Virus record (IMG/VR): IMGVR_UViG_3300015195_000006
Location: 1-64,000 of that record
DNA: 64,000 bases
Source: a virus
Reading direction: 5' to 3' (one strand)
Below, piece by piece: positions 1,995-61,800 of this stretch. How positions within the stretch are numbered: the stretch's first letter is position 1; every line of letters starts with the position of its first letter. The position numbers were made by a program, and so were the translations under genes. Under the pieces are notes generated by a model that saw only the letters and a list, made by a program, of their open reading frames with translations, was not told the origin of the DNA and made no database searches.

Positions 1995-2663
1995 TTATCC
2001 AATTTGGTCTATCACGTCTGAAAGGGTAGGGTCGGAGGTGTCTCCCGACCGCCCTTTTCCTCGCCCAACGATCACGCCCATCTTCTCAAGCATCTCAACG
2101 ATCTGCTCATACTCTTTCCGATTGAGGCGCATCCCGTCTGAAAACTGAAAGTCATTGACCGCGCCGGCCTCTTTCAGCCACTGAGAACGCGCCACCCAGT
2201 TCTTCCGTCCCATTCCAAGCAACTGGTCTTTCCGCTTCATAAACTCCGTGACGTGTGAAACGAAAACCTGACGATGGATGACCGGGCTATCATCCGTGGT
2301 GTTTGCCGGAATTTCCAACACATCCCCAATCCCACCGCTTTTATTCCAATCCTTATTGGTCATAATCTCGATCCACGCCTCTGTTATGGCCGCAAGATGT
2401 TTCAATGGCTTGACACACAAAGCCAGCATCCTCGAAATAAACACAAAGAGAAATGGCAACGCGATAATCGAGAGCGTAATACGCCAATTCCGGTGAAGTG
2501 TTACTTCATCTCCAAATGCGAAAAAGAGCAAGATCGGAAATGAAATAAGCGCCGCAATCGCCGCGATCGAGGCGTGAACGAGTTCACTTTCGAGAACTTG
2601 GTCCCGAAAGGTTTTCCCGTTGTCGGGAACATAACGCGTCACTTCATTTAGATTTTGATTCAC
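1995..2663 (-). CDS. membrane protein (two N-terminal TM helices plus soluble C-terminal domain)
   Basis: Track ORF. Hydrophobic stretches IAAIAALISFPILLFFAF and ITLSIIALPFLFVFISRMLAL. Last gene of the leftward block. Confidence 0.55.
   Translation of the reverse strand: MNQNLNEVTRYVPDNGKTFRDQVLESELVHASIAAIAALISFPILLFFAFGDEVTLHRNWRITLSIIALPFLFVFISRMLALCVKPLKHLAAITEAWIEIMTNKDWNKSGGIGDVLEIPANTTDDSPVIHRQVFVSHVTEFMKRKDQLLGMGRKNWVARSQWLKEAGAVNDFQFSDGMRLNRKEYEQIVEMLEKMGVIVGRGKGRSGDTSDPTLSDVIDQIG
2614..2629. repeat. copy of 16-bp dyad motif TTMCCG-N4-CRGKRA
   Basis: TTCCCG TTGT CGGGAA. Inside CDS 1995..2663, where it encodes VPDNGK on the minus strand. Confidence 0.85.
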
Positions 2664-2755
2664 GAATCATCACCTGAATCAACTTGTAGAGCGCGAACAT
2701 CGTCAAACACGCCGCGATGAAAAAGAAGATCCAAATCAGAATCGCCGGCGGTGGA

Positions 2756-7367: not shown

Positions 7368-7597
7368 TTTACACTTTTCCCGGCAACAGTAAGAATATAC
7401 ATCTCGCCGTTCCTGACTATCAATCCCTTTCGCACTAAAGCATTGATCGTGCGGGAATGGACGCAGCGATAGAAAGTGTTCAAGCCATCGCACCGTTGCA
7501 TCCAAGCCCATTCTCCGCGAGATACCTCTCCGCGATAAATCATCCTTCCGTGAGAAAGATTCTCGATCGTTAGTTTCTCAATTGTGTCGAGTCGCAT
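7361..7597 (-). CDS. hypothetical protein (78 aa), possible winged-helix
   Basis: Track ORF. C-terminal INALVRKGLIVRNGEMYILT resembles a wHTH wing. Confidence 0.45.
   Translation of the reverse strand: MRLDTIEKLTIENLSHGRMIYRGEVSRGEWAWMQRCDGLNTFYRCVHSRTINALVRKGLIVRNGEMYILTVAGKSVKC
7377..7392. repeat. copy of 16-bp dyad motif
   Basis: TTCCCG GCAA CAGTAA. Inside CDS 7361..7597, where it encodes LTVAGK on the minus strand. Confidence 0.85.
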
Positions 7598-10813: not shown

Positions 10814-11106
10814 TTTGCCTCCGCATTCCAAGATTCAAGGCGCTTGCGTTCCTCTTCATTGATGCGCTTGCATTGCGGACATAGATTCGGGTCATTCGTG
10901 TCAATCTCCCAAACACCAATCTTCGCCTCGCCATATTCAGGAGAATTAAAGTCAACCACGTCAGTGCCGCAAGCTGTTTGGTCAGCTTCGTAATAATTGG
11001 GCGGAGGATTCTCAACTCCGTAATTATCTACAATATCCCAATCTTCGAGCGTAACGCGAATGACAAAGTGAATCCGGTTGTAAATCGGATCAATCAAGAG
11101 TTTCAC
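10810..11106 (-). CDS. hypothetical protein (98 aa)
   Basis: Track ORF. C-terminal CPQC motif. Confidence 0.55.
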   Translation of the reverse strand: MKLLIDPIYNRIHFVIRVTLEDWDIVDNYGVENPPPNYYEADQTACGTDVVDFNSPEYGEAKIGVWEIDTNDPNLCPQCKRINEEERKRLESWNAEAK

Positions 11107-11420
11107 ACAACCGCCTTCAATTGTCGCATTATCAAAACCACTTTTCCCAAAACCTTGATGTCACTGAGATTCTCCTTAATCTGCGGAGTCTTCGGATTCT
11201 CTGACTTGAGAAGAATCAAGTCTTTCACTCGGTAGAGTCTTCGCAGAAGCACCGGACCGCCCTTTATTTCCACGGCAACCATTTCACCGTTCTTGACATA
11301 CTTCTGCGGCTGGATCACAACTGTATCGCCTGGATTTACGAATGCATCTTTCATCGAGTCGCTGGCATCGAGCACAATCGTGTCGGGTCCAAAATTCATG
11401 CTGGCAAGGATGGATTTCAT
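11103..11420 (-). CDS. S24 (LexA/UmuD-type) peptidase domain protein without a DNA-binding domain
   Basis: DASDSMKDAFVNPGDTVVI matches the G-x-SM...GD block. LLRRLY...LLKSENP aligns with LexA VKRL...LLPEN. Confidence 0.6.
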   Translation of the reverse strand: MKSILASMNFGPDTIVLDASDSMKDAFVNPGDTVVIQPQKYVKNGEMVAVEIKGGPVLLRRLYRVKDLILLKSENPKTPQIKENLSDIKVLGKVVLIMRQLKAVV

Positions 11421-12134: not shown

Positions 12135-12278
12135 TCAGAATGATTCAATCTTTTTAGCGCATCGTTCGGTTGCCGCGCGCCATGCAATCCAAGCCGTGTC
12201 TTTTCCTGATTCGTCGGATTCCATCTCTGGATTCACTCCAGCGAATCGCTTCCACCATTTATCGAATTCAGCTCTCAT
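12135..12278 (-). CDS. small ORF (47 aa)
   Basis: ATG 12278 is in ATGA overlap with the stop of 12275..12529. Confidence 0.35.
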   Translation of the reverse strand: MRAEFDKWWKRFAGVNPEMESDESGKDTAWIAWRAATERCAKKIESF

Positions 12279-12529
12279 TTCGTCAAGTCCTTTCTTGTGA
12301 TTTCGAGATAAACGCTCTCTTTGTTGCGCATGTTCTCGAGTACCGATCGAATGTATTTCAACATTCCTTCCAAGTCGTCGTCCGTGGTGACCGCCCCCAC
12401 AACGACCTCATAAACCGTTGTAGTTTCGCTCGGCAACGACGCCGATATGAAATGCACCTTCTTCATGTGCTTGGTCAGCGATTCCGCGACCTTGAACTCT
12501 TGTCCGCAAACTTGGCATTTAGGAGGCAT
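12275..12529 (-). CDS. hypothetical protein with N-terminal C2H2-like zinc finger (84 aa)
   Basis: CQVCGQEFKVAESLTKHMKKVH. Confidence 0.5.
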   Translation of the reverse strand: MPPKCQVCGQEFKVAESLTKHMKKVHFISASLPSETTTVYEVVVGAVTTDDDLEGMLKYIRSVLENMRNKESVYLEITRKDLTK

Positions 12530-12731
12530 TCAGCTCCTTCTTTCCAAGAGCATAGAAATTACGCCGCGATGTCGCATTCAAGTGACACGCATTAAGGCAA
12601 ATACCGTCCTTCAGGTGTGCATCACAGACCGGGCAAATCTTGTCGTCAAATCCTAACCTCTCCCAAATACTGCCCTGGAACTTGGGGTCGGTTTTCTTCT
12701 CTGCTTTCATCCACGCTTGGTCAAACATCAT
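12519..12731 (-). CDS. hypothetical Cys-rich protein (70 aa)
   Basis: Track ORF. CPVCDAHLKDGICLNACH. Confidence 0.5.
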   Translation of the reverse strand: MMFDQAWMKAEKKTDPKFQGSIWERLGFDDKICPVCDAHLKDGICLNACHLNATSRRNFYALGKKELNAS

Positions 12732-12960
12732 TCTCCTTTTTCCCGTTAACGGGAACTTGTTTCCGATTGATCAATATCGTCTGCCACACCGGCGCGCCCA
12801 TCGTCCAATAGTGATAACCTCCGATCTCCAAGTAGCGAAACTTGTCGCCCTCCCAAGTCTCGTCAACTCCGTTCTCTCGGATGGCTCGGACCGCTCGACT
12901 AAAAAGAATGGGATTCTCCCACTCGCTTTTCAGCGAGTATTCGTGCGGATTGTCGGGCAT
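12721..12960 (-). CDS. hypothetical protein (79 aa)
   Basis: Track ORF, coupled to its neighbours. Confidence 0.55.
   Translation of the reverse strand: MPDNPHEYSLKSEWENPILFSRAVRAIRENGVDETWEGDKFRYLEIGGYHYWTMGAPVWQTILINRKQVPVNGKKENDV
12740..12755. repeat. copy of 16-bp dyad motif (perfect palindrome)
   Basis: TTCCCG TTAA CGGGAA. Encodes VPVNGK near the 3' end of CDS 12721..12960. Confidence 0.85.
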
Positions 12961-13670: not shown

Positions 13671-14126
13671 TCATCTGGTAGGTAGAGGGTTCTTTCGCGG
13701 TTTTGGTGGGAAACGGCTACCGCGAATACGGTTGATCTCCGTCCGTTCTTCAAGGCGTTTCTTCAGCCCCACGAAATCAATGCTCGTTGACTCGAAGTTG
13801 ATCTCATATAGAAGCCCATCGTGGGATGCCTTTGCATCAGGGTGGGCTTTGAGGATGCCAAACTGAACAAGGCTCGATAACGCGGCACTTACTGCGGCAA
13901 CCGACATTCCTGTTCCATTAGCTACTTTCCTCCCTCGGACCTCGTAACCCTTGGAAAACACGGAAAGGGAGATTCTTGCTTGGCGGGATTCTCTGCCTTC
14001 ATCCCATCCAAGGATCTGCCTTGCCGCAAAAAGCAAGACAGTATTCTCTCCGGGTGTCAGAAGATACATCACCTCGTCAACATAGATGTTTGGATATTGC
14101 AGGGTGTTCGGAATAAAGTTGCTCAT
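13671..14126 (-). CDS. winged-helix protein resembling the N-terminal domain of lambda O-type replication initiators
   Basis: LLTPGENTVLLFAARQILGWDEGR...ISLSVFSK...TGMSVAAVSAALSSLVQFGIL follows the Phage_rep_O pattern (L..E..VL..I.R.T.GW...). GGAGG Shine-Dalgarno. Confidence 0.5.
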   Translation of the reverse strand: MSNFIPNTLQYPNIYVDEVMYLLTPGENTVLLFAARQILGWDEGRESRQARISLSVFSKGYEVRGRKVANGTGMSVAAVSAALSSLVQFGILKAHPDAKASHDGLLYEINFESTSIDFVGLKKRLEERTEINRIRGSRFPPKPRKNPLPTR

Positions 14127-14304: not shown

Positions 14305-14320
14305 TTACCGTCACCGGGAA
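14305..14320. repeat. copy of 16-bp dyad motif
   Basis: TTACCG TCAC CGGGAA. Its centre supplies the TGA stop of CDS 14311..14532. It lies 5 bp upstream of the -35 at 14294-14299. Confidence 0.85.
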
Positions 14321-14532
14321 AACTCGGTGCCCGGTACTTGTCGTTGCGCCATTTCTGCGCTCACAAAGTAGGTGTAGTAGCAGGCGCAGATATCCGGCTT
14401 GACAAACACCGTCCACGCGGTTGAATCGGCTGGCGGTGTTCGGACATTCAAGACCGTGACGCGGTGGTGAAGCGTAAGCGACGCGAGAATCATCGTGCTA
14501 AAGATGATCGCGTAAAGCAGTTTGGCTCTCAT
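14311..14532 (-). CDS. small secreted or membrane protein (73 aa)
   Basis: Signal-like MRAKLLYAIIFSTMILASLTL. GAGAGGAAG Shine-Dalgarno. Confidence 0.5.
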   Translation of the reverse strand: MRAKLLYAIIFSTMILASLTLHHRVTVLNVRTPPADSTAWTVFVKPDICACYYTYFVSAEMAQRQVPGTEFSR

Positions 14533-15532: not shown

Positions 15533-15901
15533 TTATAGCGCGAGAGTATTTTGACCGTGAGACAACCGATATTGGGTTACTGCTTGTTCTCCTTCTAACC
15601 GAGCTGTCTCGGTTGTTGGACCGGCAACATAGCCATAAGTATTTCTATCGTCGGCAATTCTGATATAGCCGAGCCAGTCCAAGATGGCGCAGATTTGCGC
15701 GATTGAAAGGTCTTTCGTGGAGCCGCTTGTCTCGGGAAAGAGAGACTTGCAAACCTCGTGGCGGGTCGTCGGGAAACATTCTTCCAGGTGAATGACGAGC
15801 ACGGCGCGCAGACCCTTCTCGTTCTTGACGGTGCGATTGAACTCACGCACCTTGCGATTGAGCATGGCTCGAAGATTGTCGAGTGAGAGTGGTCTAATCA
15901 T
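15533..15901 (-). CDS. hypothetical protein (122 aa)
   Basis: Track ORF. Confidence 0.55.
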   Translation of the reverse strand: MIRPLSLDNLRAMLNRKVREFNRTVKNEKGLRAVLVIHLEECFPTTRHEVCKSLFPETSGSTKDLSIAQICAILDWLGYIRIADDRNTYGYVAGPTTETARLEGEQAVTQYRLSHGQNTLAL

Positions 15902-16500
15902 CGCTTGCCTTCTATCGCGTTGATAGCCGCGACAACTGGATTCTCTGCGTCGAGAATCTCAACTTTCCTGTTAACGGTAAAACTCTGATGACAGAACGGG
16001 CATTCAATCTTGGGTGGGTCAATGCCGCGTTCTTCTTTGGCTATTTTATTCCGCAGATGCATCGTTGGCATTTCGTTTTCAATCGCCATCTGCAAATACT
16101 TTTCTTGTTTGTCTGATGAGAGAGCCGCGACCTCGGCGTGTGCCGAAAAAGATATTTCTCCTATCCTGCGCTGGTCAGGCGCAACGTGGGCGGCGGTGTA
16201 TTTGATATTGGCAAGCGTTGAATAACTTAGCCCGGTCACCTCTATGGCTTGAGCATACATTTCGCCGTAATGCTGTTCGCCGTAAACAAGCGCGTCCCCA
16301 ATCCAGAATTGGAAGGGACGCACTATTTTCTCCTCGACCTGCTTGAGAATTTCCATACAGGCATACCACTCGGCATAGTCTGGTTTCCCGCGCACGGTCA
16401 TCCCGTTCTGTTCAAAGTGAAAAGAACCGATGACCAAACAGCCGTTTAAAGCCCATTTGAGTTTGGACTTGCGGGGTGTCAGAGCAGACATTGATTTCAT
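15898..16500 (-). CDS. putative DNA-binding protein (ParB-type HTH-like segment plus C-terminal zinc ribbon)
   Basis: FWIGDALVYGEQHYGEMYAQAIEVTGLSYSTLANIKYTAAHV...SFSAHAEVAAL. CPFCHQ near the C-terminus. The function call is tentative. Confidence 0.45.
   Translation of the reverse strand: MKSMSALTPRKSKLKWALNGCLVIGSFHFEQNGMTVRGKPDYAEWYACMEILKQVEEKIVRPFQFWIGDALVYGEQHYGEMYAQAIEVTGLSYSTLANIKYTAAHVAPDQRRIGEISFSAHAEVAALSSDKQEKYLQMAIENEMPTMHLRNKIAKEERGIDPPKIECPFCHQSFTVNRKVEILDAENPVVAAINAIEGKR
15965..15980. repeat. copy of 16-bp dyad motif
   Basis: Forward TTCCTG TTAA CGGTAA, which is reverse-complement TTACCG TTAA CAGGAA. Encodes FTVNRK in CDS 15898..16500. Confidence 0.85.
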
Positions 16501-18109: not shown

Positions 18110-18129
18110 TCTGACCTCCTTGTGAGATT

Positions 18130-18145
18130 TTACTGTTACCGGGAA
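18130..18145. repeat. copy of 16-bp dyad motif
   Basis: Forward TTACTG TTAC CGGGAA, which is reverse-complement TTCCCG GTAA CAGTAA. Its centre supplies the TAA stop of CDS 18136..18336. Confidence 0.85.
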
Positions 18146-18336
18146 GATTGCAGGAACTTTCGGTCAACCTTATCATCATTCTTCCAACTGCTGATGCACG
18201 CTTTGCATGTCACCGACCGAATTGTCGGGTCATAAAGCATCTTGGCACTTATTCCCTTGCCACAGTACGTTCGGCGTACATATCCGCCAATGTGGTTGTC
18301 CCATGTCATTGACCTTTGGAAATGTATTTTCATCAT
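18136..18336 (-). CDS. hypothetical protein (66 aa)
   Basis: Track ORF trimmed to the ATG at 18336, which follows GGAGGAA. Confidence 0.45.
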   Translation of the reverse strand: MMKIHFQRSMTWDNHIGGYVRRTYCGKGISAKMLYDPTIRSVTCKACISSWKNDDKVDRKFLQSSR

Positions 18337-18497
18337 TTCCTCCAAGTGCGCGGATCATTCTTGCAGTAGCCGCACGTGCATTGTGGCGGCTCTTTGTGGT
18401 CAACGCTTGTGAGAACGAATCGCGCCTTGCGTTCGCTTCCGTATTTCTCAACCCATTCCTCAATCTCGCGGGTTGCTGGCGATTCACTTCTTGCCAC
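18333..18497 (-). CDS. small ORF (54 aa)
   Basis: GTG 18497 follows AAGGAGG. Hand translation MARSESPATREIEEWVEKYGSERKARF...CTCGYC. The track ORF 18230..18487, in another frame, is Arg-rich and looks spurious. Confidence 0.4.
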   Translation of the reverse strand: MARSESPATREIEEWVEKYGSERKARFVLTSVDHKEPPQCTCGYCKNDPRTWRK

Positions 18498-21026: not shown

Positions 21027-21260
21027 ATGGATTGTATGCAATCCCTGACACAGCAAATAGCCACGTTCTCACGGACGTTTTATGACTTGTGGATTCATCA
21101 GCATCAATTCAATGAGGAAGCAACGCGGGAAATAGCTTTGTTGAAGAAAGAGATTGCTGATCTTAGGGCGCTTCGCGAGCAAGACGGCAAGGACATTGCG
21201 ACCATCGGATTGGGGCTTGGCGATGCGGCGCAACAAGTTAAGAAGATGCGGAATGAGTAA
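21027..21260 (+). CDS. small coiled-coil protein (77 aa; may start at ATG 21036)
   Basis: Track ORF. No Shine-Dalgarno; the ATGs lie 1 and 10 nt after the -10 hexamer. Confidence 0.45.
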   Translation: MDCMQSLTQQIATFSRTFYDLWIHQHQFNEEATREIALLKKEIADLRALREQDGKDIATIGLGLGDAAQQVKKMRNE

Positions 21261-37371: not shown

Positions 37372-37409
37372 CCCTGAAAGCCCCTAACTTTTGAGTTTTA
37401 CGTTTCTAC

Positions 37410-37438: not shown

Positions 37439-37445
37439 AGGATTG

Positions 37446-37637: not shown

Positions 37638-37707
37638 TGGCAGTCGAGTAACCCGAAATAGGCAGTCCTCACGGAACGCCACTTTAATCGTAGCCGCCGC
37701 GCAAGCG

Positions 37708-37741
37708 AGCGCCACGAATGAAGTGGCGTTCTTTTTATTTT
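37708..37741 (+). terminator. intrinsic terminator
   Basis: AGCGCCAC-gaatgaa-GTGGCGTT followed by CTTTTTATTTT. The same 3' arm can also pair perfectly (11 bp) with GAACGCCACTT at 37674-37684. Confidence 0.6.
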
Positions 37742-37796
37742 ACCGAGGTGTCAAATTCCATATCCGGGGATCAGCGACCAAGCGACGATTGATAAG

Positions 37797-41678: not shown

Positions 41679-41686
41679 GGAGCATT

Positions 41687-43123: not shown

Positions 43124-43141
43124 GTTCGTAGTAAATAGAAA

Positions 43142-43169
43142 CTGGGTGCGGATTGAAATCCGCACCCAG
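43142..43169. terminator. strong GC-rich hairpin after the capsid gene (bidirectional)
   Basis: CTGGGTGCGGAT-tgaa-ATCCGCACCCAG, extended by GTTCGTA (43124)/TACGAAC (43170). Lies between convergent 41687..43123(+) and 43186..43854(-). Confidence 0.75.
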
Positions 43170-43185
43170 TACGAACTTTAACAAT

Positions 43186-43854
43186 CTAATCGGATTCCCA
43201 CAATTCCTTAAAGCGTTGCGCGGCGCTACTGATTTTAATTTGCCAGTCGCTCGGAAGTTCGGACAAGTCCTTGTCCCGTTTGGCTGAATTACAGGATTTG
43301 CAAAGAATCACCGCATTTCCCGGTTTCAATTCATACCCTTTTGACACAGGGAATACGTGATCAATCGCCAATCTCTCGGTTGAACCGCAAACAACGCAGG
43401 CGGTTTGAGTTTTGAAAAGAAATTCCTGCATTTCAAGCGTCCAATTGCGATCCGCATTCCTTCTTTGATGCTTACTCCATCTCCAATAAAAAGGAGTGTG
43501 GCTAAGTCCGTGTTTAGTAAACAGCCGTTTTGCTTTGGCGACATTGACTTCTTTGGAGTAACAACCGCAACTTTTACTGGCACCATTAGTAAGACTATTT
43601 TGTCCGATGGTTTTCTCATTGCCGCAATCGCAATGGCACAACCATAAAGAACCGTGTTCGTCACTGCCGTTTTGTTTGATGGCGACCCATCGCCCAAATC
43701 GCTTACCAGACAGGTCTCGTGTGCGCGCCTTGTTTCGAGCAACGGTAGCACAGTAGTTGCCGCAAAACTTACTTCTGTGTTCCTGACTTGGCTTGACCGG
43801 ATATTCCGTTCCGCACTCTTCACAAATCTTTTTGACTTTCATTTTAAGACTCAT
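43186..43854 (-). CDS. HNH endonuclease
   Basis: ACVVCGSTERLAIDHVFPVSKG...VILCKSCNSAKRDK, plus N-terminal Cys-rich modules. Confidence 0.8.
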   Translation of the reverse strand: MSLKMKVKKICEECGTEYPVKPSQEHRSKFCGNYCATVARNKARTRDLSGKRFGRWVAIKQNGSDEHGSLWLCHCDCGNEKTIGQNSLTNGASKSCGCYSKEVNVAKAKRLFTKHGLSHTPFYWRWSKHQRRNADRNWTLEMQEFLFKTQTACVVCGSTERLAIDHVFPVSKGYELKPGNAVILCKSCNSAKRDKDLSELPSDWQIKISSAAQRFKELWESD

Positions 43855-44086
43855 CGTCAGGATCGATATGCAGGTCTCGGCGCAAAATAACCAATAGGCA
43901 ACCGGGATTATGGTCTACTTTCCAGTAGTAATCGCGGTTCCCGTAAACATCGGCTTTCCCGCGGCTCAATTCGTAAGCATCCGCATTGCAGATATTGCAA
44001 AAAGAATTATCGCAATCAAGTCCGCCCGTGCCGATGAAGTATTTTGTTTTGGACAGCAGTTTTGCAACATCATTCATTATTGCCAT
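43844..44086 (-). CDS. hypothetical Cys-rich protein (80 aa)
   Basis: Track ORF with AAGGAG Shine-Dalgarno. Co-oriented with the HNH gene. Confidence 0.5.
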   Translation of the reverse strand: MAIMNDVAKLLSKTKYFIGTGGLDCDNSFCNICNADAYELSRGKADVYGNRDYYWKVDHNPGCLLVILRRDLHIDPDDES

Positions 44087-44199
44087 TTTGCTCCTTAAAA
44101 CAGTTCGCCCCGCCTCCCACTAGTGCAAGTAGCAGGAAACAGGGCGATGGCTGGAAATAGAAATGCCCGCTTGCACCGGACATGATAATTGCTGAATTC

Positions 44200-44228
44200 A
44201 ATATAAGATAGAAAGTGATTAAAGTCAA
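44200..44228 (-). promoter_or_regulatory. sigma70-type promoter of the antisense two-gene cassette
   Basis: Minus strand reads TTGACT (44228-44223), 17 nt, TATATT (44205-44200). Confidence 0.5.
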
Positions 44229-44230
44229 GA

Positions 44231-45973
44231 GTGGATAATCTCACAGTAATCATTCCATTCCGCGATGGACAAGCGACGATCCTTAAACTGCTTGCTTCGC
44301 TACCAAAACTCCCGGTCATTATCGTGGATGACCAATCGAAAGAACCTTACCAATCAAATAAACATCAAGTCATTCGGCTTGACCAACGCGGCTACTTCTC
44401 CGGTGCGGTCAACAAAGGGATTCAGTCCTGTGACACCGATGTTCTGATCCTCAATCAAGACGTATGGCTTGAGGATTTCAACTGGGAGGATCTGGACACC
44501 CAGCGTAAGACCTTCGCAATGATCGGCGATGGAGTCTTCGGGCATCCTGCTTTCCCTCAAGGATATGTGCAAGGCACATTCATGTTCCTCCGTCGAGACG
44601 CGATCGAGAAGGTCGGGCTTCTCAACGAGAAAGATTACCCGCTGTGGGGCTCAACGTGCGAATACCAGACCCGTCTTTGCCGCCTGGGATTCGAGGCACT
44701 CCCCCTAAAGATTGGCGCTCTCCATCACGAGCGCAAAGGGAATTACGGCAGTTCCATCAAACAGGCACTCAAAGATGAACCTAACAAGCAATCGCTCTTG
44801 GTCCGAACGCCACCGGAGATTTCAGTCATTATCACCTGTCACAACTACGGCAGATTCCTGAACGATGCGGTCAATTCCTTAATCGGCGGAAATACGATTC
44901 TTGGTGAGATGGCGCCACAGACCTTTCAGTCTTTTGAAGTGATCATCGTCGACGATGCCAGCACCGACGAAACGCCCGAAATTGGCAAGTCCTTGGCAAA
45001 CGACTGGAAAGGAATTCACTACCTTCGGCTTGATAAACTGGGCGGCTCAGCAAGAGCAATGAACGCAGGGATCAAGGCATCTTTCGGAAAAGTGATTGCA
45101 CCGCTCGATGCCGACGATATGATGGAGTCGAATCGGCTCGAAACCTTGTATAATGTGCTCAAAGAGAATCCGCACAGTTGCGTGTATGACGATGTGATGT
45201 GGGTCGAGCGAAACAAACGCAGTCGCGTGGATCGGTTGCCTGATTACGAATTTGAAGAACTGGTCCAAAAGAACGGCATCCACAAGGGCGTGATGTATTC
45301 AAGACAAGCTTGGATTGATACCGGTGGCTATCCCGAATCCATGCAACACGGTCGTGAGGACTGGGCATTCAATATCGCCCTCGGATTCAAGGGCTACTGC
45401 GGCAAGCACATCGAACAACCGCTCTATCTTTACCGAAGGCACGAACTCAATCGCACGAATCAGCAAGAAAAAGACATGCTGAAAGGCTCGGTCAACTGGC
45501 GCCGAGTTTTCTACGAACAAATTCACGCTCTCTATCCAATGCTACAGACAGGAGAAAGACCTATGGGTTGCTGCGGAGGCGGCAGAGCCGCTAACCAAAC
45601 CATTCAAACAGGAAGGACGCAAGGTGCATTTATGACACAACTCGGTCAGCAAGGTATGGTGATGCTTCAATACCTTGGCAACAAGGCAGGCACGATCTCG
45701 TTCTACGGCTCGGTCACCAAAACGCGCTATCTCTTCGGCGGTCAACGCACCGTCGGCTATGTGGACTCAAGAGATGTTGAAGGCTTTGTCAAACTCTACG
45801 AAGGCAAAAGCCCACTCTTCCAGGTCCAACAAACTGAAGAGCCGAAAGTTTACAAAGCGGCGCAGTCTACTTCACCAGAAAGAATCACTCGAGATATGGC
45901 TACCTCGGCTCCCGGCGACTCTGCGCTTGTAGCCAAGTCGCGCAAGCCTCGCAAAGTCAAAGATGTGGCTTGA
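44231..45973 (+). CDS. two-domain family 2 glycosyltransferase (580 aa)
   Basis: Two GT2 N-terminal signatures: TVIIPFRDGQ...VIIVDDQS and ISVIITCHNYGRFLNDAVNS...VIIVDDASTDET...DADD. Confidence 0.8.
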   Translation: MDNLTVIIPFRDGQATILKLLASLPKLPVIIVDDQSKEPYQSNKHQVIRLDQRGYFSGAVNKGIQSCDTDVLILNQDVWLEDFNWEDLDTQRKTFAMIGDGVFGHPAFPQGYVQGTFMFLRRDAIEKVGLLNEKDYPLWGSTCEYQTRLCRLGFEALPLKIGALHHERKGNYGSSIKQALKDEPNKQSLLVRTPPEISVIITCHNYGRFLNDAVNSLIGGNTILGEMAPQTFQSFEVIIVDDASTDETPEIGKSLANDWKGIHYLRLDKLGGSARAMNAGIKASFGKVIAPLDADDMMESNRLETLYNVLKENPHSCVYDDVMWVERNKRSRVDRLPDYEFEELVQKNGIHKGVMYSRQAWIDTGGYPESMQHGREDWAFNIALGFKGYCGKHIEQPLYLYRRHELNRTNQQEKDMLKGSVNWRRVFYEQIHALYPMLQTGERPMGCCGGGRAANQTIQTGRTQGAFMTQLGQQGMVMLQYLGNKAGTISFYGSVTKTRYLFGGQRTVGYVDSRDVEGFVKLYEGKSPLFQVQQTEEPKVYKAAQSTSPERITRDMATSAPGDSALVAKSRKPRKVKDVA

Positions 45974-46274
45974 ACTCGTCCTAAGCGCGTTCGCGTGCTA
46001 CCGCTTGTCCGAAATGATCGCCACGGATGATGGATTATTCGATTGTTTCCTTAGACTCCGCATCCTCTCCGGAGTTTATGACTTGGGCAAGGACGGACGA
46101 CCGCGAACGAACTTAGGACGCCTGATGCAATGTCCGTATTGCGTCGGGGTATGGCTAGCAGGACTCATCACCCTGCTAGTTTTCCCGGTAACAGTAAATT
46201 CAGTTCTCTACTGGCTAGCCATCTCAGGCAGTCAGGCATTTCTACAAACGATTGGAGGTCGAAGTGGTTCTTAA
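45963..46274 (+). CDS. small membrane protein (DUF1360-like)
   Basis: MWLELVLSAFACYRLSEMIATDDGLFD...CPYCVGVWLAGLITLLVF. Confidence 0.45.
   Translation: MWLELVLSAFACYRLSEMIATDDGLFDCFLRLRILSGVYDLGKDGRPRTNLGRLMQCPYCVGVWLAGLITLLVFPVTVNSVLYWLAISGSQAFLQTIGGRSGS
46182..46197. repeat. copy of 16-bp dyad motif
   Basis: TTCCCG GTAA CAGTAA. Encodes FPVTVN in 45963..46274. Confidence 0.85.
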
Positions 46275-46536
46275 CACGGCAAAGCGAGACGTTGAGAGGG
46301 CGGTTGCGATGGTTCGCGCCGATCCCTACGTCGCCAAGATCGCACAAGCCATCCAGAGTTACATTGACAGCCAATTGACCGATGGGACTGTTTCGATGTC
46401 AAAAGCGAACCTGAAACAGACGGTCTCGCCCCCATCGGGCGGACCAAGCGGAACAAACGCGCAATACATCTACGGGCAGATGTTCGATGAAGCAATTCAA
46501 TCCTTGACGGGAAAGTATAAAAAGTTTGTCCAATGA
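46264..46536 (+). CDS. hypothetical protein (90 aa)
   Basis: GTG 46264 follows GGAGG. Confidence 0.45.
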   Translation: MVLNTAKRDVERAVAMVRADPYVAKIAQAIQSYIDSQLTDGTVSMSKANLKQTVSPPSGGPSGTNAQYIYGQMFDEAIQSLTGKYKKFVQ

Positions 46537-47606
46537 CCGTCGTCCCTTCCCTTTCTGTTCTCGATGAATCGCTCTCCGCTGTAAAGCTGGCGCGTTACGC
46601 GGCAATCGTCGGCTTGCACGAATGCAATCTATTCGGCGTGAACTTTGGCGATTCAAGCCAATGCGAACCGCTCTGGTCGCTTCAACAGCGAGCCATGCTC
46701 TTGCGCTATCTCATCGAAGCACAGAGCGAGATCGAGCAAGTTGCCGGGTTTTTCCTGATGCCAAAGTATGTCATCGGTGAGCAACACCCCTATCGCTATC
46801 CACTCGTTTCAAAGTGGATGAAAGTTATCGCGATGGGTGTCAAAGCGATCAGCAACATCTCGCTTGGAAAGACAGTAGATTACACCAACGACCCGTGTGA
46901 GATAACTGTAACCACCGCTGTTACGAATGACGAGATTCGGATTTATCACGCAGGAACGGACATTGAGATTACGCCAAGTTCAATGGTCAACGTCGCTGGA
47001 ACGCTCACGATCGAAGTGCCTCGCTGTCGGATGGTTGAGATTGCAGCGCAGGACACGCCGCAGGGTGGGTTAGACTACAACGATGTGCCGCCCAGCGGAT
47101 CCAGCCCGTTCGTTTTTACCGTTGACGTGAAAAGAGTCTATACCGACACGACTGATACCGGGGATTTGGTTTATCCACATTCCAAGAGCGATGGGCTGTC
47201 TTGTTCTTGCCAAGTCACCTGTTCGGAGTTTCTGCACGAAGCCTGCGCGTATTTGAAAGTGCCTAAAACAGGCGTCATTGACGTATTAAAAACCAACAAC
47301 GGAATCCCGTCGAATGCTTGTGGCTGTTTTTCGAGACGCGCGAGTTATGCACGGATCAACTATCTTTCAGGGATGGATCCGCTGACGAGCCAAGCCGAGG
47401 ACACAATTATACGGCTCGCTCATTCAAAAATGGCGCTTAAACCTTGTGGCTGTGACATTGCAAATTCCGTGTGGGAGCGTGACCGTCACATTCCAGATCA
47501 ACTTGATTCGCAGAGATTAGGCAATCCGTTCGGGGTTTCCGATGGCGCGTGGGTTGCTTGGAAATTTGCCAATGCTTTGAAGATTTGGCGCGCCGGGGTT
47601 CTCTAA
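46533..47606 (+). CDS. hypothetical virion-module protein (357 aa)
   Basis: Track ORF in the head-to-tail joining region. No motif recognised. Confidence 0.6.
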   Translation: MTVVPSLSVLDESLSAVKLARYAAIVGLHECNLFGVNFGDSSQCEPLWSLQQRAMLLRYLIEAQSEIEQVAGFFLMPKYVIGEQHPYRYPLVSKWMKVIAMGVKAISNISLGKTVDYTNDPCEITVTTAVTNDEIRIYHAGTDIEITPSSMVNVAGTLTIEVPRCRMVEIAAQDTPQGGLDYNDVPPSGSSPFVFTVDVKRVYTDTTDTGDLVYPHSKSDGLSCSCQVTCSEFLHEACAYLKVPKTGVIDVLKTNNGIPSNACGCFSRRASYARINYLSGMDPLTSQAEDTIIRLAHSKMALKPCGCDIANSVWERDRHIPDQLDSQRLGNPFGVSDGAWVAWKFANALKIWRAGVL

Positions 47607-47613: not shown

Positions 47614-47629
47614 TTCCCGGTGACAGGAA
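47614..47629. repeat. copy of 16-bp dyad motif, intergenic
   Basis: TTCCCG GTGA CAGGAA. Lies between the stop at 47606 and the GTGGAG Shine-Dalgarno of 47643..48428. Confidence 0.85.
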
Positions 47630-48428: not shown

Positions 48429-48913
48429 TCGTTGTCCGTTCCTTCTCAACCTTCAAGCCATTGAAAGAAAGCGTCTTTCGCGAAGAATCCAAGAAAGCAC
48501 TCCAACGGCTTGAGAAGAATGTCCTGGATGACTTCCGTCGCACGACCAAAACCTGGAAACGGCAACCGAAGTTCACCAGCAAGATCGTCGTAGATCGGGC
48601 GCAGATCGCGCTCTTTGTCGGGACCGATGACAAGATTTACGGTTATGTGGATAAAGGCACGAAGCCGCACATCATCCGAGCGAAAACGAAAAAGGGCTTG
48701 ATCTTCCTAACCGGTGGAACACCCAAGACGACACCCAACGTGATTCAGGCGTTTCCATCGAAGCCCGGAACAAAGTGGAATCGCAAGATGCAGGTGAAGA
48801 ATCCCGGAACGAAAGCAAGGAACTTCACCGCCATCATCACCAAGACGTTAAATAAGGAATTTCAAAACGAAATGAGACTAGCAATGGAACGATTTGCTCG
48901 AAGGTCTAAATGA
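48425..48913 (+). CDS. possible HK97 gp10-like neck / tail-completion protein
   Basis: Size, position, and IYGYVDKGTKPHII resembling the gp10-family (Y)VExGT block. Tentative. Confidence 0.4.
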   Translation: MIVVRSFSTFKPLKESVFREESKKALQRLEKNVLDDFRRTTKTWKRQPKFTSKIVVDRAQIALFVGTDDKIYGYVDKGTKPHIIRAKTKKGLIFLTGGTPKTTPNVIQAFPSKPGTKWNRKMQVKNPGTKARNFTAIITKTLNKEFQNEMRLAMERFARRSK

Positions 48914-49239
48914 AAATCACCATCCTTGAGGAAAACACTAAAACCGCGCTGGTCGAATGGTCGGATGCCAACGGATTGCATCGTGGCTATCTGCCACGCG
49001 GTATCATCAAAGACGACCTTTCGGCAGTAGTTCTCCGAACCGCCGTTCCTTTTGGGCTCAATTTCGAGGATTTCCCGGTAACGGTAAATTTGGCTAAAGC
49101 CCTGCACGATCGGGGCATTTGGACCATCAACGATATGAACGATATTGCGAACGTGAAAGCCGCGATTCAAGACGCGCTGGGAATCCAGCTCGAATCGCTA
49201 CTCAATTATGCGCGCAGAGCGCGTCAGGAGGCACCATGA
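48910..49239 (+). CDS. hypothetical protein (109 aa)
   Basis: Track ORF. Confidence 0.55.
   Translation: MKITILEENTKTALVEWSDANGLHRGYLPRGIIKDDLSAVVLRTAVPFGLNFEDFPVTVNLAKALHDRGIWTINDMNDIANVKAAIQDALGIQLESLLNYARRARQEAP
49072..49087. repeat. copy of 16-bp dyad motif
   Basis: TTCCCG GTAA CGGTAA. Encodes FPVTVN in 48910..49239. Confidence 0.85.
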
Positions 49240-54716: not shown

Positions 54717-57700
54717 TGCCGGTAGTCCCTGCGCCCAATCTCGCCCTTTTACGCACCAAGCAACACGTCACGGACTTGTCGCTGAATGTTTACGTTCCTC
54801 CCACGATTTGGAGTGCGCAGGTAAACGGTGCTCAAGCAAACGGCTCTACCTCGATCGCGGTGGATAATGTCGTCAATGTTCGGACTCCTGCCAAAAACAT
54901 GCAAGTCTTCTTTGGTACAACTCCCGGTGCTTCGGACCTTGGCGAGGCGCGCTGGCGGTCTTATGCAGCACCAACTCTCAACGTTAGCATCCACAATTCC
55001 GATCTGGGCGACGATGTTTACATCACGGTCAAAGAGGTCATTCAGCCCCAGTCCATTCACGTTGGGATAGTTTATGGAGTTGGATTTGGGCTCGATCATC
55101 TCTTTGAAGACAATGACATTCCGTACACGGACGACAATACTAACTATCCTCCGTTAGCTCGGTGCGGAACGCATTGCGTCATTTATCTCGACCCCAACAC
55201 TTTACTGGCAACGGGAAAATTCTATTCACGTTCAACCGGGATTGCTGGCGCAACAATTTCAAGTGTCCTCTGGTCATGGCGCGGCGGAACAGTTACCGCC
55301 GGCTCTACGGTTACCGCTGGGACTTCAGGGGCACCGAATCAGGTCACTTGGAACGCGCCAGGAGATTATTACTGCTCCCTTACTGTGACGGACAATCACG
55401 GCAAGACGCACACCCGCTTTTTCGTCGTGATGGTGCGAAATCCCAACTCATTTCTCGATACTATTTCCTACCGCAAATTAGAGATCAGCACGCTTGAAGG
55501 TGATGAAGCCGGTGTCTGGTCTGGAACGATTACTGTTCGTTCCATCGCCGCCATCTCTGAGTTTCCAAAAAATGCGTTGTGTGTTCTTTCAGCGGTTGAT
55601 CGCTACGGTGCGACCCAGCAGTCTATTGGAAACGAACTCTATCGCGAGAACATCGTGATGGTCGGGTACATCAAAAGCGGCTCGGTAAAACAGGACTGGA
55701 TCAAAGGAACAGTTACCTTCTCGCTTTGGAATATCGCGGGTGTACTTTCAACCTTGGGGGAACTAGCGGGAGATTTGGAAACTCCCAACCCACCAAATGC
55801 AGTAGATCCGTGGCATCTCTTGAACGGAATGACCTACAACCTAGCCGTACACCATCTCTTGGTTTGGCACTCGACGGTTTCCCAACTTGCAGATGTCTAT
55901 CTCAATCTGACAAATTTCACCGCGGAGTTTGTCACACTTCCCGAAGGCGCGATGAGCGAGCAACTGACACCGATTTGCAATTCAGTTTCAGGTCGCTGGG
56001 GCGGGACTGCGCTGGGTCATTTGTATTTCGAGCCACATCCGCAACTTCAGCCAGTCTCAACTCGCTCAACGTCCTATATCCTAGCTCAGAATCTCACAGA
56101 CCTTCGAGATGAGGTAGATTTCGGAGATGAACCGCAGAATAAGATCGTTTCAAGGATTGACTTTTGGGGTGAAGATGCAGCGGGAACTCCGTTCGGCTCT
56201 TGGGCACCACCAACTCCTTGGTCATCTGGCTCTCCGCTAACACTCAACGGAATCAGAATTGTTGACCAAGCCAACTGCAACGTCTTGGCGGGACTTTACG
56301 AGGCATACAAGAATCTTGGCTTCAAACAAGTCATTCTTCCGTGGAGAGGAAACTATCGAATCTTCGATGTCTTTCCAGCAGAACCTATTTCAGTTACCGC
56401 TCCGCCAAATAAAAGAAACATTGCTTGGGCTGGGATGAGGTTTTGGATCAATCATGTCACATACGATTTTTCGAAGATCGGAAGCGGAGTTTTGCTGGTT
56501 TCAACGACCGTGGAGATGGACATCAAGGGAAGCCTAGCCATCGGACAGCCTGAACCACCGCCGGGGACTGTGCCACCTTATCCGACGGTCATTCCGCCGC
56601 CGGGGACTTTGCCTCCGGTTATATGGCCGGGTCCAACTCCATTCCCTCCACCGCCGCCGAATCCGCCGCCGAACCCCACTACAGTTCCAGGACGCGGGAA
56701 TTTGCTCTATGTCTCAACGCACAAAGGGCTTGCGTGTTGCAAGGGCGCATACGGAACCACCGGGCTTAACGGTGCGCCAATTTGGACGAATCTAAGTGCG
56801 CAACAAATCACGGCAACCGTTGGAACGATCACGCAAGCTGGATTTACAATCACGGGAAGCGGCACTCAATTCCTGTCTCAAGTTGCAGTTGGAGATCGAA
56901 TTATCGCGGTTGGAATTGACGCCACAGTAACCGTCATCGGCGGAGACACTAGTCTCACGGTTGATGTTTCTGCAACAGTTGGAGTTGGGGCAACGTTTAC
57001 GCTCTACCACCCCAATCCGGTCTTGGCGGCAAATGTATTGTCCTTGGTTATCCGCAAATTCGTTGTAGATCCATTCAGTTTGTCAGGAGATCACTTTACC
57101 GCTGCTTGGGCGATGACCGACGGTGGGCTGTATCGCATCACAGGTCTTCCCAATACACCTGTTTGGACGCTACAATTAAATTTGGCGACTGCGTATGCTC
57201 TTGCAGGTAGTCCTGGAATCGCAGGAACTCAGCAACTTACATACAGTTTATCCGCAAACGCAATGATACCAGGTTTTATAGCAACCCAACTTTGTGTGAG
57301 CAATGATTATTTTTCACCGCGTCCATTCGTTTATGGGGCAGATGTTTGGACTATTTATTCGCTTGATTATGGGGCAACGTGGCACTGCGATTCCGCAAAG
57401 TATTTACATTTTGGCGGCGTAATCGGTTCTGGGAACGTTAGCCCTTGGCTCTACATCGCGCCATCAACCCATCTCGGAGGTGTCTATTATGTCGGAGGTA
57501 ATGCGCCATCTGGCGATCAAGCAAGCGGCTATTATGCCGCTCCATATCCGAGCATCGCGCGAGTTCCAGGCAATCGCGGAGGTGCGTTTCCTGATTTTTC
57601 GGCGGGCATGTCCATAGATGTTACCCCAGTATTCGACATCTATAGATATTTTCTAATACCCTACAGCGACAAATCTGGTGTCATTTATGCTAACGACAAT

Positions 57701-58807: not shown

Positions 58808-61800
58808 GCCGAAACCAACTACAGACCGCGAATCAGTTTGACTCCTTCAAGTCCCGCGAGAGAAAACGGCTTGAGGGCATTGACGCGACCCTCGGCAATG
58901 GACACGGACTGGTTGACATTGGAGATTCGGGTTTCGTTTGGGCGAGACTCTATGGCGATGGTCGGCGCCTGATTCGCGTACGAGACGTGGCTGAAACGCT
59001 GAAGATAGACAACACCCCTATTCTCGTCGAGCGCGTCAACGAGAGCCAGAAAGCACTCTATCGCTTTGTGGGGAGAAATTCAGACCGCGCTTATTCTTCA
59101 GACCCACAGTCAAATACCGTAGCCAAACACGCGCTTCAGCACGAAGATGCCGATCGGGGAACTGGCGGGTTCGACAAAGTAAGAATATTCAACCGCGCCC
59201 TTGCCGAGGTTAAGGCAGTCGCCTTCGCTAATCCAGGGATGAGCGTCTTTGTCACACCGGGACCTTTTACCGTTAACGGGAACTGGAATTATTGGGCCGG
59301 GGGGAATACACCGGTCTTCGTCGCGCCTGCCTTGACTCGGATGGATCTGATTTATCTTGGGGCTGATCTCGCCCTTCACGTTCTCGCAGGATCGGATATG
59401 GCTTCGCCACCGACTCCGCCCGTCGTCCCAGACAATGTCTTTCCGATTGCGTGGGTCTTTCTAACTTCAGCTACGACAGCGATCAGTGAAACAGAACTCG
59501 CCAATGCTAAAATTATTGGGTCGCAAACTTTCCCTCCCGCTGTTGTCATACCGCCGTATTCAAACCCGATGACGACTCTTGGGGATATGGTTTATGAAGA
59601 TATATCTGGGGCGAACCTTGTGCGCTTTCCTGCAGGTGGGGTTGCTAGTTACAGCGCAGTCAATTCTTATAGCGGATCTTATTTGCCCGATAAAGCAGCA
59701 GACGGAGATATTACAACCGATTGGGTCGCATCTGGTTTACCTCATCCTTGTTGGTGGCGCGTAGATTTCACGGTCGCCCAAATTGTTGGCAGGGTTATTT
59801 TACGAAATCGAAACAATGGAGTAGACCAGTTTGGATCCACCGGAACTATAACTTTCAGCGATGGCTCGTCTGTTCCTTTTTCAGGACTGGCTCTTGGTGG
59901 CGCACCGCTCACGATTGATTTTCCGGTTAAAAGCGGGATCACCTGGATTCAGGCAAACGGTGACGCACTGGCTGGAGCAAACGCGGGTCTAGCTGAGGTC
60001 GAAGCATATGCGGAATCTGCTACACGGCTACCCATCGGTACTGTCGGACAAGTCTTGCAGGTAGTCAGCGGCTTACCCGCGTGGGGTAGTTTAACAACTC
60101 CAATCCACGCCGCCACATCCAAAGTCACACCCGTTGACGCAGACGAGATTCCTCTCGCTGATTCTGCTGCGTCCTGGGGACTGAAAAAACTAACGTGGGC
60201 AAATATCAAAGCCACGTTGAAAACTTATTTTGATGGATTTTATTCCCTCATAGGTCATACTCATTCCTATCTTTCGTCAGCATTAACTTCCGCGCATATC
60301 TTTGTGGGCAACGGCTCGAACGTCGCCACTGACGTTGCAATGAGTGGCGATGCGACGATTAGCAATACGGGTGCATTGACGCTGGCAACGGCTAATGCTA
60401 ATGTCGGCACATTCGGTAGCGCAACCCAGGTCGGACAATTCACGGTTGATGCAAAGGGCAGAATCACAGCCGCAAGCAATGTGGCGATTGCGGCGGGTGG
60501 AACTCCAGGCGGATCAAACACGCAGGTTCAATATAACGATTCGGGCGTGTTTGGCGGGGATGCGGGATTAGTTTGGGATAAGACCAACAAGGTTTTGACC
60601 ATCGCGCACACCGCGCCCAAGTTTGTAATGACCAACACCACAGGCGGGGCGAAATCACTGACTATCGCCGTTGGTGCAACTGCGAACATTGCCGATTTTC
60701 GAGAATCAGCGGGGGCGAGTGGAAGCTTGCTAGCGCTGGATTTAGCGAATAAACGAGTGGGAATTGGAACGAATGCGCCGTCATTTGATTTTGAGATTTA
60801 TGGAACAAACTCGCCATCTATTAAAGTTAATAACGGAAGCACAACTGGCTATAGCCAGGTTTTGCTTTCAAACACCACTGGCAACGTCTGTCAGTTTTTT
60901 GTGAATGGGTCAGCGCAAGCAACTTACGGCGGAGCAAATTCATTTAACATTCTAACGGCGGGAAACTACCCAATCACATTCAATACCAATAACGTTGCCA
61001 GGGCAATCATTCTAGGAAACGGGAATGTTGGTATTGTCACGCTGAACCCAGTTGTGCCGTTTCAGGTCAAAGGTGTGTCCAGCTTCTTCGTTAGCGACAC
61101 TGGGCGTGGATTGACGATAGATCCGGGGCTGACAACTGGGGTAGTGAATATCTACACAGACTACCTAGGCGGGAGTCAACCCAATCTGCATCTTGCGTCT
61201 TATTCTGATCGCGCTGGGGCAAACGGAATTACTATTATCAATGGCGGGAGCGTTGGGATTGGCACATCTTCGCCAACCAACCTTCTCTCTCTCGGCGGCA
61301 ACTCTGCCCGCACGATCTGGATGGAACGCCACACCGTAAGCAATTCAGTTGGCAACCCTTTGACCGTTCAAGCGGGCGGAGCAACAAGTGGGGCAACAAA
61401 CAAATTAGGCGGTGATGCGATCTTTGCAGCTGGACTTGGAACTGGTAACGCCGGAAGTGGGAAAGTAAGATTACAAGTTGCTCCGCCAGGTTCGTCTGGC
61501 ACAGCCGATAATACGCTGGCAGACGGATTGGTGATTGACAATTATGGAAATGCTTCGCTTGGCGCAGCAACGACCACTGGGAAAAACAGATTGTTCATTC
61601 CTGGCGGAACGGCGATTGCGGTTGGCGACGTTGTGCTAGGAGCGGGTTGGGGCGCGAACGCGGTTGTCACGGCAGTATCGGGCAACGATATGCGCGGGAC
61701 GATCACGGTGACGACCAGTGCGCTTGATACGCCTCTGGCGACTCCATCTCTGACTCTGACATTCAAAGATGGAACGTGGACATCCGTGCCACTAGCGATT

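Follow-up and report, generated by a model that had tools for sequence, protein, structure and literature searches.

Sixteen dispersed palindromic sites in an uncultivated tailed-phage genome, putative operators of a phage-encoded DNA-binding protein

Genome-wide operator networks are known from few systems, namely the cluster A mycobacteriophages, phage phiC31 and RK2. In phiC31, conserved inverted repeats (CIRs) of about 17 bp lie at many loci and are bound by one phage repressor; RK2 carries 12 OB sites, whose classes are beside promoters, far from promoters and inside genes; and the Noc-binding site (NBS) is built from the half-site core TTTCCC, two of which abut at the dyad. In the cluster A mycobacteriophages (L5 gp71, the TipsytheTRex repressor), more than 20 copies of a 13-mer stoperator/operator lie at promoters, in short intergenic spaces and over start and stop codons of a genome on the 50-kb scale, and one phage-encoded protein acting on the stoperators blocks both initiation and elongation (PMC9283540). 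KorB of RK2 is a global repressor with a ParB-type DNA-binding domain and palindromic OB sites TTTAGCGGCTAAA (PMC11790492), LmbU of Streptomyces lincolnensis is a homodimer with a central helix-turn-helix domain that binds the palindrome CGCCGGCG (PMC6510168), and the distinction between NBS and parS has been discussed elsewhere (PMC7383237). Here we describe 16 copies of a palindromic site that are scattered over the virus record IMGVR_UViG_3300015195_000006 and that we read as putative operators of a phage-encoded protein; the window, as we call the stretch analysed, comprises 64,000 of the 64,475 bases of this Joint Genome Institute (JGI) metagenome contig.

These sites occur far beyond chance and are palindromic. 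The exact pattern TTMCCGNNNNCRGKRA is found at 14 distinct positions in the window (20 strand matches), compared with 0.11 ± 0.31 matches, and at most one, in dinucleotide shuffles of the window, an enrichment of more than 100-fold. An earlier note on this DNA, made from the letters alone, had arrived at a chance expectation of about 0.1, which the shuffles reproduce, and had listed 14 copies, all of whose coordinates and sequences proved correct on recheck. It had rightly flagged 21263 as carrying one mismatch, and hence as standing outside the exact set, but its list was incomplete: an exact match at 55202 and a further site at 47116 were overlooked, as was the tendency of the sites to sit just 5′ of start codons. 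Site 47116 (TTACCGTTGACGTGAA) joins the set through a symmetrised weight matrix, which yields a bimodal distribution with 16 sites scoring 21.3 to 31.2 and the next best position at 8.9; the top score in 100 Markov-1 random sequences was 19.6. We also counted how many further 16-mers, on either strand, agree with each 16-mer of the window at 13 or more of 16 bases. The top 16 positions of this de novo count are exactly the 16 sites, which removes the worry that the pattern had been chosen post hoc, and the count revealed no other repeat family in the window. Taken together, the shuffles, the gap in the weight-matrix scores and the de novo count reject chance or base composition as the cause. 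The sites, to which no strand is assigned, are the following.

2614–2629: dyad site TTCCCGTTGTCGGGAA, score 23.0, lying 34 nucleotides (nt) inside the longest open reading frame (ORF) call of gene 1995–2663 (minus strand).
7377–7392: dyad site that starts 2 nt 3′ of the −10 element of a sigma-70-like minus-strand promoter, TTGATA-18-TATATT (7423–7394), and ends 9 nt 5′ of ATG 7367 of a RadC/DUF4326 gene (Pfam); by sequence, an operator-like position over the transcription start.
12740–12755: perfect palindrome TTCCCGTTAACGGGAA, followed on the minus strand by AAAGGAGA and ATG 12731 of a 70-residue Cys-rich protein, and overlapping the 3′ end of gene 12721–12960 (minus strand).
14305–14320: dyad site whose centre is the TGA stop of ORF 14311–14532 (minus strand), and which ends 5 nt 5′ of the −35 element of a minus-strand promoter, TTGACA-17-TAGAGT (14299–14271), that precedes the O-like winged-helix gene 13671–14126 (minus strand; PHROG).
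15965–15980: dyad site encoding SFTVNRK within the 3′-terminal part of the candidate binder gene, 63 nt 5′ of the next start, ATG 15901.
18130–18145: dyad site whose centre is the TAA stop of ORF 18136–18345 (minus strand), followed by AAGGAGG and ATG 18109 of a 44-residue zinc-ribbon protein.
21263–21278: dyad site TACCCGTCAACGGGAA at the start of TerS, score 28.4, lying 10 nt past ATG 21253 and 3 nt past the stop of 21027–21260.
24684–24699: dyad site within the final 60 nt of the portal gene, ending 14 nt 5′ of ATG 24714 (in frame with ORF 24528–25373).
27584–27599: symmetric dyad TTACCGTTACCGGTAA near the 3′ end of the GT2 gene 27032–27706, 97 nt 5′ of ATG 27697.
39742–39757: dyad site deep in the gene for a 1293-residue polyprotein, encoding the peptide LPVNSK.
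46182–46197: dyad site in the DUF1360 gene 45963–46274, 66 nt 5′ of GTG 46264.
47116–47131: dyad site TTACCGTTGACGTGAA, score 21.3, inside gene 46533–47606; beyond the earlier list.
47614–47629: intergenic dyad site, its first base 8 nt past the stop at 47606 and its last 13 nt short of ATG 47643; GGAG lies between the site and the ATG.
49072–49087: dyad site in ORF 48910–49239, 31 nt 5′ of TTG 49119, the longest start of a BNR-repeat protein gene.
55202–55217: dyad site, TTCCCGTTGCCAGTAA on the minus strand, inside the gene for a 1363-residue tail/lysin protein; beyond the earlier list.
59267–59282: dyad site inside the gene for a 1046-residue tail-fibre-like protein.
15898–16500, minus strand: candidate binder gene, encoding a 200-residue LmbU-family-like helix-turn-helix protein and holding site 15965.

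The consensus of the sites is a 20-bp palindrome, tTTTMCYG-KYRM-CRGKAAAa, in which the four central bases are restricted to K-Y-R-M. The flanking 5′ T-run and 3′ A-run noticed earlier are real, the weight matrix showing a preference for two further T and two further A on the respective sides. The spacer is strict: 13 dyads have 4 nt between the half-sites, none has 0 to 3 or 5 to 8, and a single stray has 9. In 13 of the 16 sites one perfect TTCCCG half is joined to a weaker half, and a TTACTG half invariably faces TTCCCG; a strong and a weak half at fixed spacing are the signature of a homodimeric protein that binds double-stranded DNA. Along the genome the sites are spaced roughly evenly, at about one per 4 kb, the only long site-free stretch being the 12 kb from 27.6 to 39.7 kb, which coincides with an island of sugar-modifying, methylating and GIY-YIG genes.

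Selection acts on the DNA itself and not on a peptide, as had been proposed from the distribution of the copies over reading frames. That distribution holds: the coding copies occupy all three frames, 47614 is intergenic, at least three copies lie outside called genes, and the centres of 14305 and 18130 do double as stop codons of the upstream ORFs. When codons were shuffled synonymously genome-wide, only 0.22 new sites arose per replicate and each coding site was kept in 1 to 20% of replicates, so that about 1.5 coding sites would be expected compared with the 12 observed, and a peptide or codon-usage artefact is rejected. The preference of the earlier note for a dimeric binder of double-stranded DNA over an RNA hairpin is also borne out. 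In an alignment of 22 sites, drawn from the window and from related phages, covariation between the arms is absent (75.6% of cells pair, versus 77.5 ± 1.7 in shuffles), and the two variable pairs are unpaired in 13 and 8 of the 22 sequences. The perfect copies do fold (−8.1 kcal/mol for 12740 and −7.6 kcal/mol for 27584), but 5 of the 10 transcribed copies reach just 0 to −1.1 kcal/mol, and the window contains no Rfam family or tRNA. Arms that vary independently, with one perfect and one weaker half, are typical of dimer operators and incompatible with selection for a hairpin.

We then focused on related phages, which the earlier note had suggested searching; closer relatives were reached through genes other than TerL, and in the closest of them (L197, L190, L321 and, weakly, L189) the motif is enriched. 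L197, an 11.3-kb contig (Logan SRR9952630) with about 75% nucleotide identity to window positions 32998–47602, holds four sites scoring 23.7 to 28.1, which the de novo count again ranks first. Its site at 10587 is the positional homologue of 47116 and identical to it, inside one of two 29-nt stretches of perfect identity, the longest shared by a gene pair with 73% identity overall, while that at 9326 is the positional homologue of 46182, lies at the same 66-nt distance from the next start codon and differs by three substitutions, all at degenerate motif positions. Both homologues keep all eight invariant positions, for which the background, that is the chance that eight such positions are conserved in a random frame of the same alignment, is 0.13 each and about 0.02 jointly. 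L197 also has a site in the peptide LPVNGK, akin to window 39742 (LPVNSK) although positional homology is uncertain in this case, and its site at 2250 faces a decayed version in the window, a pair that illustrates what would be site turnover by point substitutions:

36462–36477, no strand: degenerate remnant or precursor TTTCCGTCCGTAGGAG, facing the full L197 site TTCCCGTCGACGGGAA (L197 2250) in a conserved peptide LFPSxGxTH.

The 4.7-kb contig L190 (Logan ERR13950625) is syntenic with window positions 19615–15946, at up to 83% amino-acid identity, and carries two sites: an intergenic one at 2156, followed by a Shine-Dalgarno sequence and ATG, and one at 4171 in the 3′ end of the 15898–16500 orthologue, the same place as window 15965. 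The 3-kb contig L189 has one weak, degenerate site in that same place, at 778, and L321, a 54% relative, has one site in all, at 73, which lies 9 nt 5′ of ATG at the gene junction that corresponds to 46182. Opposite window site 18130, by comparison, L190 has 5 unrelated bases instead of the 23 site-bearing bases while the flanks are conserved, so that one gene junction appears to differ from its relative by a small indel carrying the site. The junction cassettes at 18115–18150 (minus strand) and L190 2145–2196 lie at different genes and read alike (CAATC, site, A(A)TCT..CAAGGAG, ATG), and AATC stands on either side of the 16-mer at 18130, which hints at a module of site plus ribosome-binding site that may move between gene junctions.

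Farther out the motif disappears. L198, a 50% relative whose structural genes are in the same order, has no site, and 184 kb of more distant relatives' loci gave no match scoring 12 or above. Sixteen IMG/VR TerL loci showed neither a motif match nor an analogous dispersed repeat, and two Logan contigs (L195/L196), L323/L325 of the P0003 group and the Methanosarcina virus MetMV are likewise without both. A motif common to the wider TerL family is therefore rejected; judging by these alignments, it is a property neither of the proteins nor of the wider family, and its presence in a few close relatives together with its absence from distant syntenic ones points to a motif that a narrow clade maintains while it goes on evolving. 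When viral, metagenome and genome collections were scanned with the exact pattern, no other element among the matches listed had dispersed copies.

The most likely binder, judging from its family likeness and predicted fold, is the 200-residue product of 15898–16500, which, as had been noticed earlier, carries a copy of the motif in its own gene. The protein has no sequence match in Pfam, PHROG or the PDB. Its closest sequence family is LmbU (NCBIfam NF038070; E 8.8e-23, 81.1 bits, model positions 25–124 of 171), to which it is probably related without being a certified member. An AlphaFold2 model built from 23 homologues (predicted local distance difference test score, pLDDT, 82) was compared with the PDB by Foldseek, and the top 26 matches were all ParB, Spo0J or Noc, including Noc-NBS and ParB-parS DNA complexes (probability about 1, target-normalised template-modelling score up to 0.66), which fits the ParB-like helix-turn-helix that the earlier note had assigned to this product, with E-values that are weak. 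Pfam found no match to the ParB N-terminal CTPase (ParB/Srx) domain, ParBc, in the product, and in the model only residues 1–60, with a small beta-sheet, precede the DNA-binding domain. L189 and L190, both of which bear the motif, encode orthologues at 56 to 62% identity and have kept the site within the gene. The closest homologues (alignment A4) share a C-terminal CPFC (CxxC) at residues 166–170, with no second cysteine pair nearby, which could form an intermolecular zinc site for dimerisation; the in-gene motif copy encodes the residues directly after it.

With respect to genes, five sites (12740, 7377, 47614, 24684 and 18130) end 8 to 20 nt 5′ of the ATG of a substantial ORF, three of them with a clear GGAG-type Shine-Dalgarno sequence in between, and the same site-then-ATG arrangement recurs at L190 2156 and L321 73. 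When starts were refined by Shine-Dalgarno sequence and homology (a set that does not contain ATG 24714), 5 of the 16 site centres fell within 30 nt of a start codon, namely 7377, 12740, 18130 and 47614 upstream and 21263 10 nt after ATG 21253; 7% would be expected (P about 0.004, post hoc). Part of this association may arise because gene junctions are the cheapest places to hold a site. Three other sites (15965, 46182, 27584) lie 63 to 97 nt 5′ of the next start, and four (39742, 47116, 55202, 59267) lie deep inside large genes.

From these observations, which show the sites to be non-random, palindromic, selected as DNA and conserved within a lineage, we infer, with moderate confidence, that the 16 copies are putative operators through which one phage-encoded homodimeric protein, probably the product of 15898–16500, would bind double-stranded DNA and control transcription genome-wide. 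Each half of the dimer would read TTMCYG, in its strong form TTCCCG, across the fixed 4-bp centre. Binding would repress or activate at sites that overlap a promoter or lie directly beside one (7377, 14305), and would act as a roadblock or exert polarity control at gene junctions and intragenic positions. The set of sites is phage-specific and upheld by selection, with point substitutions creating or eroding sites wherever the peptide permits (FPxxGK, LPVNGK, FTVNRK).

Several observations weigh against this reading. The start-codon association is not significant with raw longest-ORF calls and is thus only suggestive. Sigma-70-like promoters lie near just 2 of the 16 sites (7377 and 14305), with no general association (Mann-Whitney P = 0.15), so that a role of the motif as a general sigma-70 promoter element is rejected; the divergent early/late promoter region at about 20.9–21.03 kb has no site; and the strong half-site lies upstream in seven cases and downstream in four, without orientation bias relative to transcription. 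As for the protein, its NF038070 score falls below the family cut-off of 125 bits, and the Foldseek E-values run from 9e-3 to 0.4, none of them at or below 1e-3. Its link to the motif consists of co-occurrence in short syntenic fragments, which does not discriminate among neighbouring genes, and the window offers other candidate binders: the O-like winged-helix protein (13671–14126), a C2H2 zinc finger (12275–12529) and small zinc-ribbon proteins. Moreover, L193, the contig of a 39%-identical homologue, has no comparable repeated palindrome, so that on present data a link between this protein family and dispersed palindromes is not general, and no homologue of the LmbU-like protein was found in 50,697 isolated phage genomes or in IMG/VR.

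Set against the described systems, the window resembles the cluster A stoperators in that one short sequence recurs many times across a phage genome. The stoperators, however, are 13-bp, asymmetric and strictly oriented, and are bound by a two-domain monomer, whereas the window sites are unoriented palindromes of 16 to 20 bp, about half of them deep in or near the ends of genes, and the candidate protein belongs to another family; nor did a Pfam scan of about 80 ORFs, all but a few small ones, reveal an integrase (lysogeny module). KorB-OB is alike in that a palindromic site is dispersed over a replicon of about 60 kb, in part next to promoters and in part distant or intragenic, but KorB has an N-terminal CTPase domain, forms a sliding clamp and works with KorA/TrbA and the ParA homologue IncC, whereas the window protein is without that domain and the scanned ORFs include no ParA-type partner. 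We place the window set in neither system, while its putative function is closest to both. LmbU differs in being a chromosomal activator of an actinomycete antibiotic gene cluster with few 8-bp targets, and neither a phage member of the family nor a genome-wide set of LmbU sites has been described in the literature. The phiC31 repeats resemble the window sites as inverted repeats across a phage genome under a single phage repressor, but phiC31 is temperate and has a defined repressor gene, c, of another protein family.

If the sites are indeed operators, the window would add an independent case to this short list, from an uncultivated lineage, in which the site is palindromic and the probable binder comes from the little-studied LmbU/ParB-domain family. 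One 20-bp duplex (TTTTCCCGTTAACGGGAAAA) and one 200-residue protein would make a clean protein-DNA pair, with a natural series of strong and weak half-sites, and the relatives reveal gain and loss of such sites inside coding sequence. Should the product of 15898–16500 be the binder, ParB-type DNA-binding domains would have been reused as plain regulators, and there would be a handle on gene timing in a phage almost all of whose genes are of unknown function. It is tempting to speculate further, as an outside chance, that an apparently lytic phage has taken over a ParB-type domain that lost its CTPase clamp and uses it as a genome-wide "address reader", which through the 16 parS/NBS-like palindromes would mark, compact or time-switch the chromosome. 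Such a reader could silence early and late operons together or shield the phage DNA; it would be a KorB/Noc-like system for organising the chromosome, carried by a phage and belonging to a family not described before, and the first assigned function of LmbU-like proteins outside actinomycete antibiotic clusters.

Alternatively, a host protein (a nucleoid-associated protein, a global regulator or a Noc/ParB-like factor) may bind the sites, being recruited or evaded by the phage, with the LmbU-like protein unrelated to them. In its favour, the core TTTCCC equals the Noc-binding half-site, and many phage and bacterial contigs, unrelated to one another, carry palindromes of the form TTTTMCCG-N4-CGGKAAAA singly or in local copies, so that proteins reading such a sequence may be widespread. 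We nevertheless regard this explanation as unlikely, since the motif occurs only in a narrow clade of phages, syntenic relatives at 50 to 65% protein identity, which probably have similar hosts, being without it. At least 120 genome loci were sampled from many bacterial phyla, and they hold only single or locally clustered copies, with no genome seen to be rich in the motif word; the host of the phage is not identified.

We give somewhat less credence to the possibility that the sites are centromeres or loading sites of a ParB/KorB/Noc-type system that organises, compacts, segregates or tethers the genome instead of regulating it gene by gene, much in the manner of phage N15, which has dispersed SopB centromeres, or of Noc-NBS. 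The predicted ParB/Noc-type fold of the candidate binder, the roughly even spacing, and 16-bp palindromes that often lie within genes and in one case, as with chromosomal parS, within the gene of the binder itself, would all suit it. But the protein lacks, by Pfam and by its model, the N-terminal CTPase domain needed for clamping and spreading, the scanned ORFs include no ParA/Walker partition ATPase, integrase or recombinase, and there is no sign of a plasmid-prophage lifestyle. The likeness to NBS and parS is itself partial: all are 16-bp palindromes, often intragenic, and those of Noc and ParB are read by a dimer of ParB-type domains, but the resemblance that the earlier note had seen in the half-site is confined to the identical TTTCCC core. 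The two cores abut in NBS, and in the window each lies 3 bp further from the dyad, which adds 6 bp. The window protein is also without a membrane-targeting helix and stands in a phage context.

It is highly unlikely that the motif is the recognition site of a DNA enzyme such as a nickase or homing endonuclease, a terminase small subunit (pac-like) or a site-specific recombinase. The window does encode several HNH and GIY-YIG nucleases, one of them HNH-AP2, site 21263 lies at the start of the TerS gene, and homing endonucleases typically recognise 16 to 20 bp, as here. For a nuclease, however, 16 conserved sites in its own genome would be self-destructive, a palindrome would yield double-strand cuts while known phage nick sites are asymmetric, the scan detected no recombinase, pac sites are single loci, and the degeneracy of the half-sites resembles the tuning of operator strength. 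An RNA hairpin serving as terminator, processing site or translational operator beside Shine-Dalgarno sequences would suit the five sites just 5′ of start codons and the two perfect copies that fold, but it is largely refuted, and a known RNA family rejected with it, by a paired fraction not above that of shuffles, by the poorly folding copies, by the lack of an Rfam match and by flanks (5′ U-run, 3′ A-run) that are the reverse of an intrinsic terminator.

Gene content and profile scans of the ORFs identify the genome as that of a tailed phage. Early genes on the minus strand, at about 2–20 kb, include a DnaB helicase, RadC/DUF4326, HNH-AP2, a methyltransferase and the O-like winged-helix protein, and late genes on the plus strand, from about 21 kb, include TerS, TerL, portal, glycosyltransferases, a DNA methylase, the 1293-residue polyprotein and tail genes with a GH25 lysin. 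TerL (21915–23168) is the sole member of its cluster; its relatives are numerous, at 65% identity or less, and the type is very widespread in metagenomes (5,999 matches below 1e-20). Among isolated viruses its best match is the TerL of MetMV (L319; 60%, MK170447.1 9155–10252), and in a tblastx comparison of the window with MetMV, TerL alone is in common. The consensus sigma-70-like promoters of the window and its Shine-Dalgarno sequences of GGAG type suggest a bacterial host. Two perfect 12/12 sigma-70 consensus promoters (TTGACA, 16–17 nt, TATAAT) lie on the minus strand, at 4855–4827, in an intergenic gap of the early region, and at 31738–31711.

Elsewhere in the early region, 11103–11420 (minus strand) encodes a stand-alone S24 (LexA/UmuD-type) peptidase domain of 105 residues with its Ser-Lys dyad motifs present; no DNA-binding domain is attached and the upstream ORF of 58 residues is not helix-turn-helix-like, and a CI/LexA-like repressor is accordingly rejected. 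The island at 27000–36700 comprises two GT2, a GT8, an NAD-dependent epimerase, a nucleotide-diphospho-sugar transferase, S-adenosylmethionine-dependent (SAM) methyltransferases, an N6/N4 DNA methylase of 833 residues and two GIY-YIG endonucleases, and has its own sigma-70-like promoters at 28314, 31948 and 36627. The 1293-residue ORF (37797–41678) combines an ATP-grasp domain (D-Ala-D-Ala ligase C-terminal), zinc ribbons and structural-protein regions; its L197 counterpart is two shorter genes (360 and 677 residues) without the ATP-grasp part.

Other palindromes and repeats were met elsewhere, the first two of those below in the exact-pattern scans. In a bacterial genome, TTTTACCGGCAACGGTAAA recurs every 340 nt (L309 2458, 2797 and 3139), where it encodes FTVAGK in a tandemly repeated surface-protein domain; as a coding repeat, it is rejected as a true multi-copy match. 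An unrelated 24-bp palindrome (CATTTTCCCGGCGCCGGGAAAATG, CATTTTCCCGGCAACGGGAAAAAG or CATTTTACCGGCACCGGTAAAATG), whose half-site and 4-bp centre are the same as in the window motif, occurs in one to three local copies in many unrelated, mostly gut, phage contigs (L057 7926, 9201 and 9244; L165; L130; L134; and about 34 gut IMG/VR loci among L017–L068). In L057 it lies upstream of small Xis/helix-turn-helix-like genes (MEEWVTMEEAMAIIGCS...), and a homologue of these Xis-like proteins was sought in the window and none was found. Finally, the end of a TerL relative's contig (L012 19–130) holds a local cluster of four palindromes TTACCCCNNGGGGTAA, an arrangement that resembles an operator cluster or origin-like array and differs from the scattered sites of the window.

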